Shown: positions 641 through 46,215 of the stretch, one piece after another
Layout of the letters: every line of letters begins with the position of its first letter
Position numbering within the stretch: the first letter of the stretch is position 1
Virus record (IMG/VR): IMGVR_UViG_3300033121_001789
Location: 32,001 to 96,000 of that record
Source: a virus
Lineage: Duplodnaviria > Caudoviricetes
DNA: 64,000 nt
Strand: one strand, 5' to 3'
Notes under the pieces: generated by a model
What the model was told of the DNA's origin: nothing
The model's input: only the letters and a program-made list of their open reading frames with translations
Database searches by the model: none
Translations under genes and position numbers: made by a program

Positions 641-1819
641 CTATATATTAATATATGTTTGTTTTTTATCAGACTCGACAAATAAGTTCCATTTTCTACC
701 ATCAGAAAATGGAGTAATATCTATATCCTCATCATGACTATTTTTCCAAATTGAATGTCTTATGGCAATAAATCTATCATAGTCGATATCATAAACTAAA
801 TAATATCCACTAATTTTCATTCCACCATACATATTGACATAATTATCAACATTATTATGACAATTGTTTTCTAAACAATTCGGCTTAACATTTAATTTGA
901 TCTTTACAGGAATTTTACCAAATAGTTCTAAAACCTTAGAAAAATCATCTGATTTTTTTGGTAATCTGTAATTAGATATTAGTTTTTTTGGCAATTTAAG
1001 CAGATATTCACCAACTATACTTTCGATATTATCAAAATCATAGTAGGCAATTCTTAATAAATTTATTCCCACACTTTGACAAAAGTAGTTTTTCTTACAA
1101 TCATTTTCCTTTAAAATCTTAAACGATTCTAATCCACCCCAAACTTCAACCGGTTCAAAATGTTGTTTACCATCATACTCTATACATAAATTATAATCTG
1201 GTAAATAAAAATCAATTGGTAAATAGTTTTGATTTTTCAATCCTTCAAATTTCTTTTGATATTCATATTGAATTTTATTATCAATTAAATACTTCATTAT
1301 TCTCTCCTCACCTTTAGAAGATTTACACTTTGGACAACCTTGATTCTGATAGTGCGAAAAAGGTTCTTGTAAAAAAGAACCATGCTTCTTACAAATAATT
1401 TCTACATTTTCTCTTATAGATTTAAAATTAACTAATGAATAATCATACCTATCACCATGAACTTCTCTGAATTTATCTAAAACAGATTCTTGAGTGTGTT
1501 TTTCACATTCTGAACATTTTCTACATCCAGAACCTAAGATATGATTATAAGCATTTTGTTCAAATTCACCGTGTTCGGGACAAATTATAATAACATCAGA
1601 TTTAACAGAAACAAAATTAACTTTTGAATAGTCATATTTTGAATTGTGAACTTTATTAGATTCCATGATAAAACTTTCAATTGATTTGAAATCTCTTAAA
1701 AACTCACCATGATCCGGACAAATTATTCTAACTTTAATATCAGACCTTTTATATTCAACAAGTGAATAATCAAATCTATTTTTGTGAATTTTTTCACAAT
1801 TTTCTATAAATTTTAACAT
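641..1819 (-). CDS. Free-standing homing-type endonuclease (repeated YDYS..IICxxHGxF..GCxxC modules plus PD-(D/E)xK/Vsr-like domain) with extra C-terminal domain
   Basis: Three CPxHGEF-type repeats, then LPIDFY...CIEYDGKQHF; paralogous to 31187-32101. Confidence 0.75.
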   Translation of the reverse strand: MLKFIENCEKIHKNRFDYSLVEYKRSDIKVRIICPDHGEFLRDFKSIESFIMESNKVHNSKYDYSKVNFVSVKSDVIIICPEHGEFEQNAYNHILGSGCRKCSECEKHTQESVLDKFREVHGDRYDYSLVNFKSIRENVEIICKKHGSFLQEPFSHYQNQGCPKCKSSKGEERIMKYLIDNKIQYEYQKKFEGLKNQNYLPIDFYLPDYNLCIEYDGKQHFEPVEVWGGLESFKILKENDCKKNYFCQSVGINLLRIAYYDFDNIESIVGEYLLKLPKKLISNYRLPKKSDDFSKVLELFGKIPVKIKLNVKPNCLENNCHNNVDNYVNMYGGMKISGYYLVYDIDYDRFIAIRHSIWKNSHDEDIDITPFSDGRKWNLFVESDKKQTYINI

Positions 1820-4458: not shown

Positions 4459-5259
4459 ATGGCAAGAAATAAGAAACATGAAAATGATAAATTTTACACC
4501 AAGCCACAAGTTGTTGATGAAATAATTTCTATTGTGGATGTAAGCGAATATGATTATATAATAGAGCCATCCGCTGGAAACGGATCTTTTTATAACAAAA
4601 TAAATTCAACTAACAAAGTAGGAATAGACTTAGTTCCAGAATGTTCGGAAATAATTCAATGCGACTGGTTTGATTTTAAACTAGACAAAGAATATAAAAA
4701 AATACTTGTAATTGGTAATCCACCGTTTGGGAAACAAGGATCATTGGCATTAAAATTTATCAAAAAGTGTGTGGATTTGAGAGTGGATACGATAGCTTTC
4801 ATACTTCCTAAATCATTCAAAAAGGATTCACTAAAAAATAAAATCCCACTTAATTATCATTTGATTAAGGAAATTGACCTACCAGATGATTCATTTACAC
4901 TCATGGGAAAGAGCTACTCTGTTCCTTGTGTATTTCAACTATGGAAAATATCTGAAACATCTCGAGCTATTTCGACTAGGAAGACTACTACAAAAATATT
5001 TGAGTTTGTGAAGAAAAATGAAAATCCGACAATTGCATTCAGAAGAGTAGGATTTTATGCAGGTAAAATATATACTGATTATACTTCAAAGTCGGAACAA
5101 TCACACTATTTTATCAAATGTGATAAGATAATATCAGATATAATTGAAAACTTAAAATGGGATCATAATAACACGGCTGGACCAAGAAGCATTGGAAAGT
5201 CAGAACTAATTGAAAAAGTTGAGAAGGTTATTTCCAATCAAGCAAAAGATTGTCTTTAA
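4459..5259 (+). CDS. Amino (N6-adenine-type) DNA methyltransferase, gamma motif order
   Basis: FYT..., motif I IEPSAGNGSF, motif IV GNPPF, AFILP. Confidence 0.88.
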   Translation: MARNKKHENDKFYTKPQVVDEIISIVDVSEYDYIIEPSAGNGSFYNKINSTNKVGIDLVPECSEIIQCDWFDFKLDKEYKKILVIGNPPFGKQGSLALKFIKKCVDLRVDTIAFILPKSFKKDSLKNKIPLNYHLIKEIDLPDDSFTLMGKSYSVPCVFQLWKISETSRAISTRKTTTKIFEFVKKNENPTIAFRRVGFYAGKIYTDYTSKSEQSHYFIKCDKIISDIIENLKWDHNNTAGPRSIGKSELIEKVEKVISNQAKDCL

Positions 5260-25982: not shown

Positions 25983-25992
25983 TTAATATATA
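25983..25992 (+). promoter_or_regulatory. Putative phage late promoter TTAATATATA (representative of 15 or more copies)
   Basis: Same 10-mer just upstream of starts at 12107, 16017, 22408, 41153, 42321, 51033, 59082 (+) and 4182, 25950, 43963, 45797, 46196, 53930, 58085 (-); palindromic copy at 34222-34241. Confidence 0.7.
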
Positions 25993-36058: not shown

Positions 36059-36840
36059 TGAGATATATTAAAGATATTAGAGAGGCTTTTAATCACAAAT
36101 GGTCAAAAAATGATGATTTGATACTTCCAATATGGAATATATCGGAAAATGATTTATTTGATGCATTCTCAGATTTAGAAGACGACTTTGAAGTTGAAAT
36201 AACATGTGATTTTCTTCTAAAAAGTCCCAAAGGTCATTTATTTAATCTGAAAGAAGAAAACAAAGAAATAATTGAAAGTTATGCTGCCGCTGGATTTGAA
36301 CCAATAATTCAAGTAAAAATATCCAGTCAGTATCCATTAGCAACAACCGGTGATATGCGTGCAATACAATCAACAATGATGGATTGTATAATGAATTTAG
36401 ATGGATATTATTTATCACATGTATCTAAGTTTAGAACTTATTTTGAAATTCAGTTAATGCAAGAGAAAGACGGCAATGAAAAGATAAAATACCACAAAAA
36501 ATCGAATGTATATTTTTCAAAATATGCCAAACCAATCAAGGATCTTGGTTATAAATTTATAATTAATAAAATATTTGAAATAGGTGATAAAAAGTATATA
36601 AAATTACCAGAAAAATTTGCTGGACAAAAGGTGTATATAATTTTAATAGAAAAGGAATATGTAAATCCCATTGATATTAACCTCATAGATAATATCTACG
36701 AGGTTAAAAATGTTTTTCAATCCATAGAAAGTGAAATTTCCAATTCTAAGGATTTCAAATCCACCAATGGTCAGCTTGAAATAAATAATGAAGATGGGAA
36801 AGTATTCATAAGATTTATTCTAAGAATAGTCGAAGAATAA
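36058..36840 (+). CDS. Hypothetical protein, candidate internal head protein
   Basis: MRYIKDIREAF N-terminus. Confidence 0.6.
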   Translation: MRYIKDIREAFNHKWSKNDDLILPIWNISENDLFDAFSDLEDDFEVEITCDFLLKSPKGHLFNLKEENKEIIESYAAAGFEPIIQVKISSQYPLATTGDMRAIQSTMMDCIMNLDGYYLSHVSKFRTYFEIQLMQEKDGNEKIKYHKKSNVYFSKYAKPIKDLGYKFIINKIFEIGDKKYIKLPEKFAGQKVYIILIEKEYVNPIDINLIDNIYEVKNVFQSIESEISNSKDFKSTNGQLEINNEDGKVFIRFILRIVEE

Positions 36841-36843
36841 AAA

Positions 36844-37524
36844 TTAACACAATAATTCTATTTTACCTCTTGAAAATTCCTTGAAAGAGCATTGCTTATT
36901 AGTGGAATGATCAATAACTAAATCTTCTTTAATACGATAAGATCTTTTTTTATCCGATCGAGAACCCATACCAATTTGGTGTAATCGATTTCTATATTCT
37001 TTTTCGTCCCATTTTTCTTGTTCAATAGACTTTAACTTTTCCTCTAACCTTTTCCAAGCCAATTCTTCATTTTTCAATTGATCTCGAGTATCCTGGCATT
37101 TTATTTGAATTCCAGATGGTCTATGTGTCAAGATAACACAACTTGATACCTTATTAACATTTTGTCCACCCTTGCCACTACTTCTAGTATATTGTCTATC
37201 TACATCATTTCGATTTAAATGAAAGTGTAATTGATTATCCGGATCAATTAAAGCAACTGTAATAATAGAAGTTTGTGTCCTTCCTCTTTTTTCTGTCGAT
37301 GGTACTCTTATCCATCTATGTGGACCAATTTCATTTTTAAATAGATTTGAAACATTTTTCCCACTCAGTCAAATTGAGGCAAATCCATTCCTATCTTCAA
37401 TAATATCATATTTTAATCCATGATTTCTTGCAGTTTTAACATAAATATTTCTAAGATCCTCAACTAACATCTTAGAATCTAATCCGCCCTCAGCGGCTCT
37501 AATTTCTATAATGATTTTTTCCAT
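36844..37524 (-). CDS. RF1-like class I peptide chain release factor lacking domain 1, with one in-frame TGA at codon 52 (37369-37371)
   Basis: Manual translation: IEIRAAEGG...FASI*LSG...E.GPHRWIRVPSTEKRGRTQTS...SSGKGGQNVNK...THRPSGI...RSDKKRSY; PxT and GGQ intact; same frame on both sides of the TGA. Confidence 0.88.
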
Positions 37525-37529
37525 AATTA

Positions 37530-37616
37530 TTAATTTTTATTTTTGAGCAATAAATTGTTATTGTGATTGAATAATCACAAACCGCTAATAATTATGTATT
37601 CTAAATTTCATTTCAT
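37530..37616 (-). promoter_or_regulatory. Leader of the release-factor gene: overlapping uORFs and hairpin
   Basis: uORF A 37616-37530 MK*NLEYIIISGL*LFNHNNNLLLKNKN (two in-frame TGA); uORF B 37611-37585 MKFRIHNY-TAG; 8-bp hairpin 37561-37580; TAATATATA directly upstream. Confidence 0.5.
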
Positions 37617-37629
37617 TATATATTATAAT

Positions 37630-38034
37630 TCAAAATAAAAGTTCTTTTAAAATGAAGTTTCTCTTAACCTCACCAGGTAATATGTCTAATATTCCTCTCT
37701 TACTGACTATTAACTTATTATCTCTACTATAAGAACTATAAATAGTTTTCAATCTATCTCTTTTTGTACTATTACAATCTTCCATCCATATTGTTGATAG
37801 TGAATGATTGACCAATAACGCCCAAAATATGTAGTTATTCTCATAATTCATAACCCAGAAAGAATTGGACTTTGGATGTTCCTTAATGACTTCTTTTTTA
37901 TTTCTATTAGAATCATATTTTATCTCTGTAATATCCAATACCATGGTTGGGTAATGATCAATCGGATGATTACCTGGTTTATGAAAAGATGTTTTCTTAA
38001 ACCCCAAAGTTTTTAATTTCTTATGAATATTCAT
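37630..38034 (-). CDS. Hypothetical protein with C-terminal KRNFILKELL motif
   Basis: 134 aa ORF; TAnnTTTG upstream. Confidence 0.6.
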   Translation of the reverse strand: MNIHKKLKTLGFKKTSFHKPGNHPIDHYPTMVLDITEIKYDSNRNKKEVIKEHPKSNSFWVMNYENNYIFWALLVNHSLSTIWMEDCNSTKRDRLKTIYSSYSRDNKLIVSKRGILDILPGEVKRNFILKELLF

Positions 38035-38083
38035 ATTGCAAATATAATTAAAAAAAGTGATTTTCTAATTAAATATATATTGT

Positions 38084-38329
38084 ATGTATAAAGATACAAC
38101 TCCAACATTCAATTCCGGAAATCGAAAGATTGTCAATTATAAAGACTTTATTCAAAATATTGATAAAGAAAAAGAAGAATTGAAAACTGTTAAAAAGTCA
38201 TTCTCTAAAAATGAATTAGAGATTGGTTTAAAACAGCATAAATATAAATATAATAAAGTCACTCACAAATTAGATGACTTGACACCAGACGAAGTAGATG
38301 ATAAATTAGATAACTTAGAAGAGAATTAA
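38084..38329 (+). CDS. Hypothetical small protein
   Basis: 81 aa ORF; AATATATA upstream. Confidence 0.6.
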   Translation: MYKDTTPTFNSGNRKIVNYKDFIQNIDKEKEELKTVKKSFSKNELEIGLKQHKYKYNKVTHKLDDLTPDEVDDKLDNLEEN

Positions 38330-43573: not shown

Positions 43574-43941
43574 TGGTGGAGGCGGAGGGTTCGAATCCTC
43601 GTCTTCCTCAGTTAGATACAACCAATCATTTACAAGCTTAGTTAATTTTTCTAAACTAACAAAATAATAAATTTTTTCGACTCAAAAAATATTTATAAAA
43701 AACTATCACGATTTTTATCTGTTGGATTCAGAGGTAAATTTCTTGAAATATCAATTAAGCCATTTCAAACTCATTCACCATGAGTAAGTTGTTTTGTAGG
43801 GCAGCTACTAAATCTTCACTGGTTCCCACTTCGTTTGTTTTGCCGATTACGACATTCGCCATTTAATTTTTAATCGGTTATATGACAATCCGATACTTGC
43901 TCAATTACACCTAGGACCGCGAATCAATACATTACGCCCCC
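43574..43941 (-). ncRNA. ssrA: tmRNA (368 nt); predicted tag (A)GKTNEVGTSEDLVAALQNNLLMVNEFEMA at 43844-43755
   Basis: 5' GGGGGCG pairs with CGCCUCC-ACCA (G3.U Ala identity); GAC then T-arm GAGGA-UUCGAA-CCCUC; resume context GUAAUC-GGC. Confidence 0.9.
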
Positions 43942-46189: not shown

Positions 46190-46215
46190 ATAAATTATAT
46201 ATTAATTTTTAGCAA

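Follow-up and report, generated by a model that had tools for sequence, protein, structure and literature searches.

A ribosome that pauses on the leader open reading frame (ORF) of ermC, cat or secM-secA breaks a helix that sequesters the downstream start region. In tnaC, whose leader ORF ends in a UGA read by release factor 2 (RF2), and in speFL, regulation works through the time that a ribosome spends on the stop codon of the leader ORF. ORFs of two to three codons are found in the bar minigenes of phage lambda, which are known for the toxicity of peptidyl-tRNA drop-off and not for control in cis. In Salmonella, the ribosome-binding site of mgtB is freed from an inhibitory stem-loop when the 8-amino-acid intergenic ORF mgtQ is translated (PMC8092293). 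Here we describe the leader of a release-factor (RF) gene in a 64,000-nt window, bases 32001-96000 of a 109,852-nt IMG/VR virus record; coordinates given below are positions in this window. The leader is the 105-nt gap between the upstream gene P0002 and the RF gene (P0001), both on the minus strand. We read it, tentatively and with a little less than even confidence, as a translation-coupled switch that would unmask the RF start codon and might sense the speed of termination.

The closest documented analogue of this leader appears to be mgtQ-mgtB. Both have a very short (8-codon) leader ORF whose translation is proposed to open a stem-loop that hides the downstream initiation region. They differ in that the mgtQ trigger is ribosome-destabilising acidic codons, whereas in the RF leader it is proposed to be occupancy of a stop codon and the AUG itself is masked. 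The ermC, cat and secM-secA ribosomes pause inside the ORF in response to a nascent-peptide or drug signal, whereas the ORFs of the RF leader have only 2-8 codons. These are too short for an exit-tunnel arrest peptide, which leaves the time spent at the stop codon as the sole possible signal here. The tnaC and speFL leaders respond to a small molecule, and their main output is Rho-dependent termination, whereas the regulated gene in the present case is a release factor and the output would be the unmasking of initiation. The likeness to the bar minigenes is limited to the presence of phage-encoded ORFs of 2-4 codons (MK-stop, MKL-stop and MFKI-stop) at what is presumed to be the 5' end of the transcript. 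As in the +1 frameshift autoregulation of prfB (PMC12421855), expression of an RF gene would depend on inefficient termination at an early stop. The RF leader, however, has no slippery site or frameshift and would act at initiation, and the gate inside the phage gene is a zero-frame UGA. Our literature search found nothing comparable to the self-measurement of RF2 for RF1-type factors (PMC12421855) or for phage-encoded ones.

The key structure, which the original prediction for this locus did not contain, is a modelled helix in which a segment of the leader pairs with the RF start codon. Its 5' strand, CATAATTATTA (37596-37586, minus strand), is the exact 11-nt reverse complement of TAATAATTATG (37522..37532, minus strand), the 3' strand, which consists of the RF start codon and the 8 nt upstream of it. 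An exact complement of 11 nt ties the maximum found among 109 control genes. The helix was compared across four sequences that represent about three lineages: the window sequence (WIN) and the loci L002 (identical to L003), L007 and L090, where L numbers denote viral loci that encode RF relatives. Closer homologs are the proteins P0004-P0018 (72-77% identical). All four sequences share the order P0002 homolog, leader, RF gene. Folding of the presumed transcripts, by minimum free energy (MFE) and as centroid structures, gives the masking helix in all four phages as an outer helix that encloses a central hairpin. The folding energies are -15.4 kcal/mol (z -2.7) for WIN, -14.5 (z -2.2) for L002, -16.5 (z -3.7) for L007 and -22.8 (z -5.2) for L090. 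The paired strands are CAUAAUUAUU(A) and (U)AAUAAUUAUG in WIN and L090, and CUAUGACU and AGUCAUGG in L002 and L007, where the start region differs from that of WIN and L090.

The AUG region (-4 to +3) has a pairing probability of 0.99-1.00 in all four phages (0.998 in WIN). Shuffles of the leader only give mean values of 0.54-0.60, and at most 1.3% of them reach the observed value. Among 110 other genes of the phage, folded in a 103-nt window, the median is 0.53 and the maximum 0.92, so that all lie below the RF gene; with a longer window, 0.9% of genes attain its value. Masking is also robust to the limits of the folded segment. It persists, with an unchanged favoured partner, in almost every context when the 5' end is set between -88 and -250 and the 3' end between +15 and +90; two L002 contexts depart from this, with pairing at 0.40 and 0.81. 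Cutting away the 5' strand lowers AUG pairing to 0.26-0.69. According to these models, AUG masking is conserved in structure and not in sequence, and it is unusually strong. Two more distant RF loci, L091 and L121, have start codons masked (P 0.97) by unrelated sequences, which include a 13-nt exact complement (TCATAATTTTAAA) in L091. They may be independent cases of the same strategy.

The central hairpin, TTGTGATT-ATTC-AATCACAA (37561..37580, minus strand), has a perfect 8-bp stem and a 4-nt loop. In WIN it is predicted at -6.7 kcal/mol (z -2.9), and none of 200 dinucleotide shuffles is as good. Perfect 8-bp hairpins are frequent in this phage (104 versus about 41 expected), and the weight of this one therefore comes from its conservation in relatives. 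It occurs in all four phages, 1-4 nt after a TAG, with energies of -6.6 to -11.3 kcal/mol and z from -2.9 to -5.7. The GTGA/TCAC core is invariant, whereas the loop is not conserved and the GTGA-to-TCAC distance takes values of 8, 8, 9 and 12 nt. MAFFT misaligned the 3' arms of the hairpin, and pairs were counted by a script anchored on GTGA/TCAC. The original prediction had suggested a search for covariation, and the hairpin is indeed kept in the three relatives, with three pairs changed on both sides. Two of these pairs lie below the core (b1 and b2) and vary from T-A in WIN to A-T in L002; the third is the first pair above it (t1), which varies from T-A in WIN to G-C in L007 and L090. Such compensatory changes and the varying spacing would be more in keeping with an RNA hairpin than with an operator bound by protein at a fixed spacing. 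A proposed extension of the stem by AGCGGT/ATTGCT pairing does form in the WIN MFE fold, but the equivalent bases are unable to pair in L002, L007 and L090 (hand check). A comparison with Rfam 15 gave no gathering-threshold match in the window, and only chance-level matches of at most 21 bits in 37400-37750 at E up to 10. The core of the hairpin recurs in another palindrome, TTGTGAAAAAATTCACAA (TGTGA-N6-TCACA), at 1782-1799, close to the start of the gene at 641-1819 (minus strand) and either within it or before it; two such palindromes exceed a rough, composition-based expectation of about 0.16.

The leader as a whole is more conserved than its surroundings. Its nucleotide identity is 65-72% between WIN and the relatives and 81-88% among the relatives, whereas third codon positions of the RF gene are 51-62% and 58-70% identical in the same comparisons, and the upstream protein P0002 is only 39-45% identical in L002, L007 and L090. 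Because leader identity exceeds both measures, the leader appears to be under purifying selection. The conserved parts in the alignment are box 1, the hairpin, box 2 and an A-rich tract. Box 1 (ACATAATTATTAGCG, 37583..37597, minus strand; clade form ACATAAYTATTAGCG) is unique in the window and contains the 5' strand of the masking helix. Box 2 (AACAATTTATTGCTC, 37545..37559, minus strand) has a conserved ACAATTT(T)ATTG that is followed by the A-rich tract. Neither box recurs above chance elsewhere in the window, and the idea of a repeated regulon site was rejected. As a DNA pattern, the two boxes together matched the known loci and one unrelated site in viral contigs and 15 unrelated sites in genome contigs, with no RF gene near the unrelated matches. 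The locus L089 was considered as a fifth leader homolog and rejected; its synteny is kept, but its leader is no more similar than background and forms a weak hairpin.

Two short upstream reading frames (uORFs) open at the 5' end of the leader. uORF A (37608..37616, minus strand) is ATG AAA TGA, Met-Lys-stop under the standard code, and its TGA overlaps the ATG of uORF B (AATGA). Since the phage uses the standard code, uORF A has only two codons as an ORF; if its two TGAs are ignored, it has 27 codons and reaches TAA TAA TT ATG. uORF B (37585..37611, minus strand) is ATG AAA TTT AGA ATA CAT AAT TAT TAG, which encodes MKFRIHNY and ends in a TAG at 37587-37585. All of the features that the original prediction listed, namely the upstream motif, both uORFs and the 8-bp hairpin, are present on the minus strand where it had placed them, whereas its description of the leader as rich in stop codons means little in DNA of 16-18% GC. 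The positional homologs of uORF B are MKL(stop)LHNY-TAG in L002 and L007 and MFKI(stop)LHNY-TAG in L090, with TGA in place of the AGA of WIN. A mini-ORF in frame to the same TAG-CG is thus present in all four phages and is broken by TGA in three of them, so that length and stop differ. The relatives do not share a uORF B stop that RF1 reads; their mini-ORF ends in UGA.

The mini-ORF and the masking helix are closely interlocked. In WIN the 5' masking strand comprises codons 6-8 of uORF B and the first base of its UAG, or the first two bases in CAUAAUUAUU(A), and in L002 and L007 it comprises the last sense codon of the mini-ORF, the UGA and two further bases. Of the two masking strands of L090, one contains the UGA and the other follows it by 4 nt. 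The mini-ORF stop of each of the four phages is therefore within a masking strand or at most 4 nt before it. When a ribosome-sized footprint on this stop is forced to be unpaired, AUG pairing falls from about 1.0 to 0.22-0.31 in WIN (uORF B), 0.22 in L002, 0.55-0.56 in L007 and 0.31-0.34 in L090. The idea that slow UAG termination remodels the hairpin holds to the extent that a ribosome modelled at the UAG opens the AUG helix (1.00 to 0.22-0.31), but the relevant structure is the outer helix, and the 8-bp hairpin is only an inner clamp. A ribosome modelled on the UGA of uORF A leaves AUG pairing at 0.99, unless the footprint is stretched to +15, which argues against uORF A as the gate. Conservation of the leader, covariation of the hairpin, masking of the AUG and this geometry are all computational observations on the four sequences.

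The start of the transcript is suggested by the TAATATATAA motif (37616..37625, minus strand), a promoter-like or gene-start element that overlaps a sigma-70-like TATAAT at 37627-37622. A promoter-like match of the form TTTAAA-18-TATAAT ends at 37622. This TAATATATA motif, as TAATATATAA, has 19 copies in the 110-kb record against 4.0 expected. Fifteen of the 19 lie at most 27 nt upstream of a same-strand ATG-initiated ORF of at least 50 codons, 8 of these within 5 nt, and the motif is enriched in the L090 genome too (23 versus 10). Because the copies are enriched and nearly all just upstream of gene starts, TAATATATAA seems to behave as a promoter or gene-start signal. Often no more than 3-5 nt separate it from the ATG, which implies mRNAs with no leader or almost none. 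From the geometry of the motif, transcription of the RF leader probably starts at about 37616-37611, at the ATGs of both uORFs. The uORF B ATG follows the motif by 4 nt, which is the spacing of eight authentic gene starts; the RF ATG comes 91 nt after it, and no other of the 19 copies is as far from its gene start. Example sites are at 25984, 41154, 42322, 45805(-), 46204(-) and 43971(-), and in relatives the motif is combined with a Bacteroidota-type TAnnTTTG box. One of the copies precedes a tmRNA-like gene (43574-43941, minus strand) by 20 nt, and this gene matches the Rfam tmRNA model end-to-end with 41.7 bits (gathering score 47; E 3e-15 in a 701-nt search). This gene was not picked up by ARAGORN or by the gathering-threshold scan.

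The RF gene itself (P0001, 36844..37524, minus strand) has 226 codons and encodes an RF1-like protein with PST (PxT-type) and GGQ motifs in which domain 1 is absent. It matches the Pfam RF-1 and PCRF profiles, and NCBIfam prfA (2e-54, model positions 105-332) better than prfB (3e-37). A single in-frame TGA is present at codon 52 (37371-37369), and homology continues in the zero frame across it. A tblastn survey of P0001 against about 85 viral loci encoding RF relatives (L002-L007 and L087-L166) revealed an early recoding event in nearly every one, in three classes; only L095 and L133 are uninterrupted. In class A, 22 loci of 46-73% identity carry a stop at the position homologous to codon 52; it is mostly TGA and is TAG in L096 and L106/L107. 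Several of these loci have a further TGA, at codon 39 or 44. Another class, of about 30 loci, has its TGA in the context GGC TGA A at codon 37, which is the conserved Gly-Trp position of cellular RF1. Some 25 more distant loci have a prfB-like cassette, cGGAGGGGtCTT TGA C (GGAGGGG-N-CTT-TGA-C), that needs a +1 shift, with the variants CTT TAG C in L006, L108, L127 and L144 and CTT TAA C in L128 and L139. The in-gene recoding that the original prediction took as a first layer of a sensor is thus real and conserved across the family. A site of the prfB type (slippery CUU, in-frame stop and Shine-Dalgarno-like element, with a +1 shift) was not found in the leader, and the WIN gene stays in the zero frame. 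Bacterial prfA is reported to be without such a recoding device, and TAG occurs in no bacterial prfB motif (PMC12421855).

As to the stop codons read by the phage RF, the PxT motif argues, with some uncertainty, for UAA and UAG. In an alignment to Thermus thermophilus RF1, however, hrvQrvPvT is replaced by hrwIrvPsT (Gln to Ile) and grIHTs by grTQTs (Ile-His-Thr to Thr-Gln-Thr). We take the differing residues to be contacts to the third base of the stop codon, and the specificity of the phage RF may accordingly not be RF1-like. The divergent residues are about 72 and about 83-85 of the RF, at 37296-37302 and 37263-37280.

On the basis of these models, we infer where the transcript starts, that the mini-ORF is translated, that a ribosome on it opens the helix and that the outcome is sensitive to the rate of termination. 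Transcription would probably begin at or just after TAATATATAA, so that the mRNA begins at the uORF ATGs. In the closed, or off, state, the leader of about 90 nt would fold so that the RF start codon is hidden in the outer helix, with the central hairpin as its clamp. In the open, or on, state, the masking strand would be held by a ribosome engaged in translation of the mini-ORF, most of all when it waits at the stop, while another ribosome starts on the RF gene. Dwell at the stop codon would depend on release-factor activity, and slow termination could consequently raise RF synthesis. This switch would work alongside the in-frame UGA at codon 52. In the relatives, the UGA of the mini-ORF is also the codon that gates position 52, so both layers could respond alike, whereas the mini-ORF stop is UAG here. 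The notion of a second layer of the same sensor is a better fit to the relatives than to this phage. A full two-layer termination sensor, in which dwell at the mini-ORF stop sets unmasking, readthrough of UGA-52 follows, and RF is made only when host termination fails or is disabled by the phage, strikes us as distinctly doubtful. Whether the arrangement would form an autoregulatory loop depends on the codons that the phage RF reads.

A number of observations weigh against the switch. Just four sequences of about three lineages share the leader, with L089 at background identity. The mini-ORF is not conserved as such, having 8 codons and UAG in WIN versus 3-4 codons and UGA in the relatives under standard decoding, and the usage of uORF stop codons across the wider RF family has no clear bias (not significant). 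Box 1 is kept in L007 without a start-site partner and box 2 has no assigned role, so that part of the conservation is left unexplained. Coarser measures of masking are not outliers, with pairing from -12 to +5 at the 86th percentile and duplex energy at about the 14th. Nor is AUG masking a property of the whole RF family, in which the median is 0.43 versus 0.54 for controls and only L091 and L121 reach 0.97 outside the clade. Helices rich in AU pairs have little strength, and thermodynamic folding takes no account of kinetics or proteins. The geometry of the motif is the only guide to the transcript start, and the stop-codon specificity of the RF may not be that of RF1, so autoregulation should not be assumed.

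Some of these points would suit a structured 5' untranslated region that masks the RF start while the mini-ORFs are incidental. It might keep RF translation low, or it might be opened by an RNA-binding protein of phage or host, a helicase, RNA processing or ribosomes from the upstream gene. We consider this explanation unlikely, if far from negligible. In its favour, the helix and hairpin are well supported while the mini-ORFs vary in length, sequence and stop among relatives, boxes 1 and 2 are conserved beyond the needs of pairing, as expected of a protein- or RNA-recognition site, and the lack of a terminator between the upstream gene and the leader makes co-translation effects possible. It does not account for a stop in or just before the masking strand in all four phages, where a modelled ribosome opens the AUG, or for a uORF B ATG with the motif spacing of real genes, and boxes that do not recur in the window give no evident shared regulon site. 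A complete lack of function, with the leader as a chance product of AT-rich intergenic DNA and recent common descent, is improbable. Short ORFs and AU helices do arise easily at 16-18% GC, the lineages are few, and several coarse statistics are unremarkable. Against this stand a leader more conserved than synonymous-like sites and the upstream protein, compensatory changes in the hairpin, and AUG masking that is above that of all 110 other genes (103-nt window) and is kept through two different helices.

The hairpin by itself invites two further interpretations. It might serve the upstream gene, or a short leader transcript, as an intrinsic terminator or insulator, the remaining leader being ordinary intergenic DNA. 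Hairpins are enriched in the intergenic regions of the phage, and box 2 with its A-run (TTTATTGCT-AAAAAT) resembles the terminator tail near 46204. A scan of 36700-38200 found no intrinsic terminator, however; the stem has two G-C pairs and no T-tract, is followed by TAACAATTT and lies after the promoter motif, whereas the phage's own terminators have, besides a GC-containing stem of 8-10 bp, both an A-tract and a T-tract and are located before it. As the masking helix would also be left unexplained, we rate a terminator as quite improbable. Alternatively, the palindromes (TTGTGATT..AATCACAA and the repeated ATAATTAT) could be DNA operators through which a phage or host transcription factor represses the RF promoter. 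The TGTGA..TCACA core presumably resembles CRP/FNR-type sites, there is the second TTGTGA-N6-TCACAA palindrome at 1782-1799, and ATAATTAT occurs both in box 1 and in the start region of WIN and L090. A dimeric protein site needs fixed spacing, but the GTGA-to-TCAC distance varies and the stem substitutions are compensatory, and L002 and L007, without a second ATAATTAT, still mask the AUG through another helix; operators are thus very improbable. The first model of the original prediction, in which the 27-codon uORF A is translated by readthrough of two UGAs and is coupled to the RF ATG by termination and reinitiation at TAA TAA, is hardly credible. The WIN frame from the ATG at 37616 does have just two TGAs before TAA TAA TT ATG, the RF gene itself requires UGA readthrough at codon 52, and the TAATAATTATG end is common to WIN and L090. 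Yet the equivalent path in L002, L007 and L090 meets an in-frame TAG and then further stops, the code is standard with no UCA-anticodon tRNA among the approximately 170 tRNAs of four large relatives, two successive readthroughs would give a very low yield, and the likely transcript start is at or after the uORF A ATG.

The record (completeness about 20% according to CheckV) has a GC content of about 28%. Its nearest GenBank records are 634-735 kb "uncultured phage" genomes and Prevotella Lak phages, which belong to the Mahaphage group, and the source is a Mahaphage-like giant phage. The predicted hosts of the Mahaphage group are Bacteroidetes (PMC7162821), and the host of this phage is probably a member of the Bacteroidota without a Shine-Dalgarno sequence. 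Use of the standard genetic code is evident from the complete lack of in-frame TGA in long ORFs, structural genes included, and an alternative code with TGA as sense was rejected for this reason. An opal suppressor tRNA (UCA anticodon) is absent from the six tRNAs of the record as well as from those of the four large relatives. An amber-reading tRNA(CUA) occurs in two relatives of 480-500 kb, neither of which has a UCA anticodon: at L438 2021-2093 and L439 2279-2352 (G002, the contig of L105) and at L442 2085-2156 (G001, the contig of L093). Some members of the phage group may therefore have TAG, and not TGA, reassigned or suppressed. The tRNA cluster of the record (G000:C1:3758-4735, outside the window) contains three Glu, one Tyr and one Met tRNA and an ARAGORN call with a four-base anticodon (gttt, 4640-4735), which may be an unusual or intron-bearing tRNA. 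The upstream gene P0002 (37630..38034, minus strand; TGA stop at 37632-37630) encodes 134 amino acids according to the ORF list and translation, and has no match in Pfam, PHROGs or the protein atlas. In L002/L003, L007, L090 and L089, the gene next upstream of the RF gene encodes a P0002 homolog, with 33-45% amino acid identity.

Bacterial RF2 is the textbook example of a translation factor that measures its own activity, which it does through a frameshift. If the translation-coupled switch is real, it would be a second way of sensing termination capacity, one that operates at the level of initiation. If the two-layer reading were also true, a feedback loop at the level of initiation would be reported here for the first time in a class-I release factor gene. 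How the many translation genes of giant phages are regulated is not known, and the switch, if true, would shed light on the point in infection at which a phage provides a release factor of its own, and on its reason for doing so. Should the mini-ORFs prove irrelevant, the locus would still be a clean start-codon-masking leader in a host group without Shine-Dalgarno initiation.

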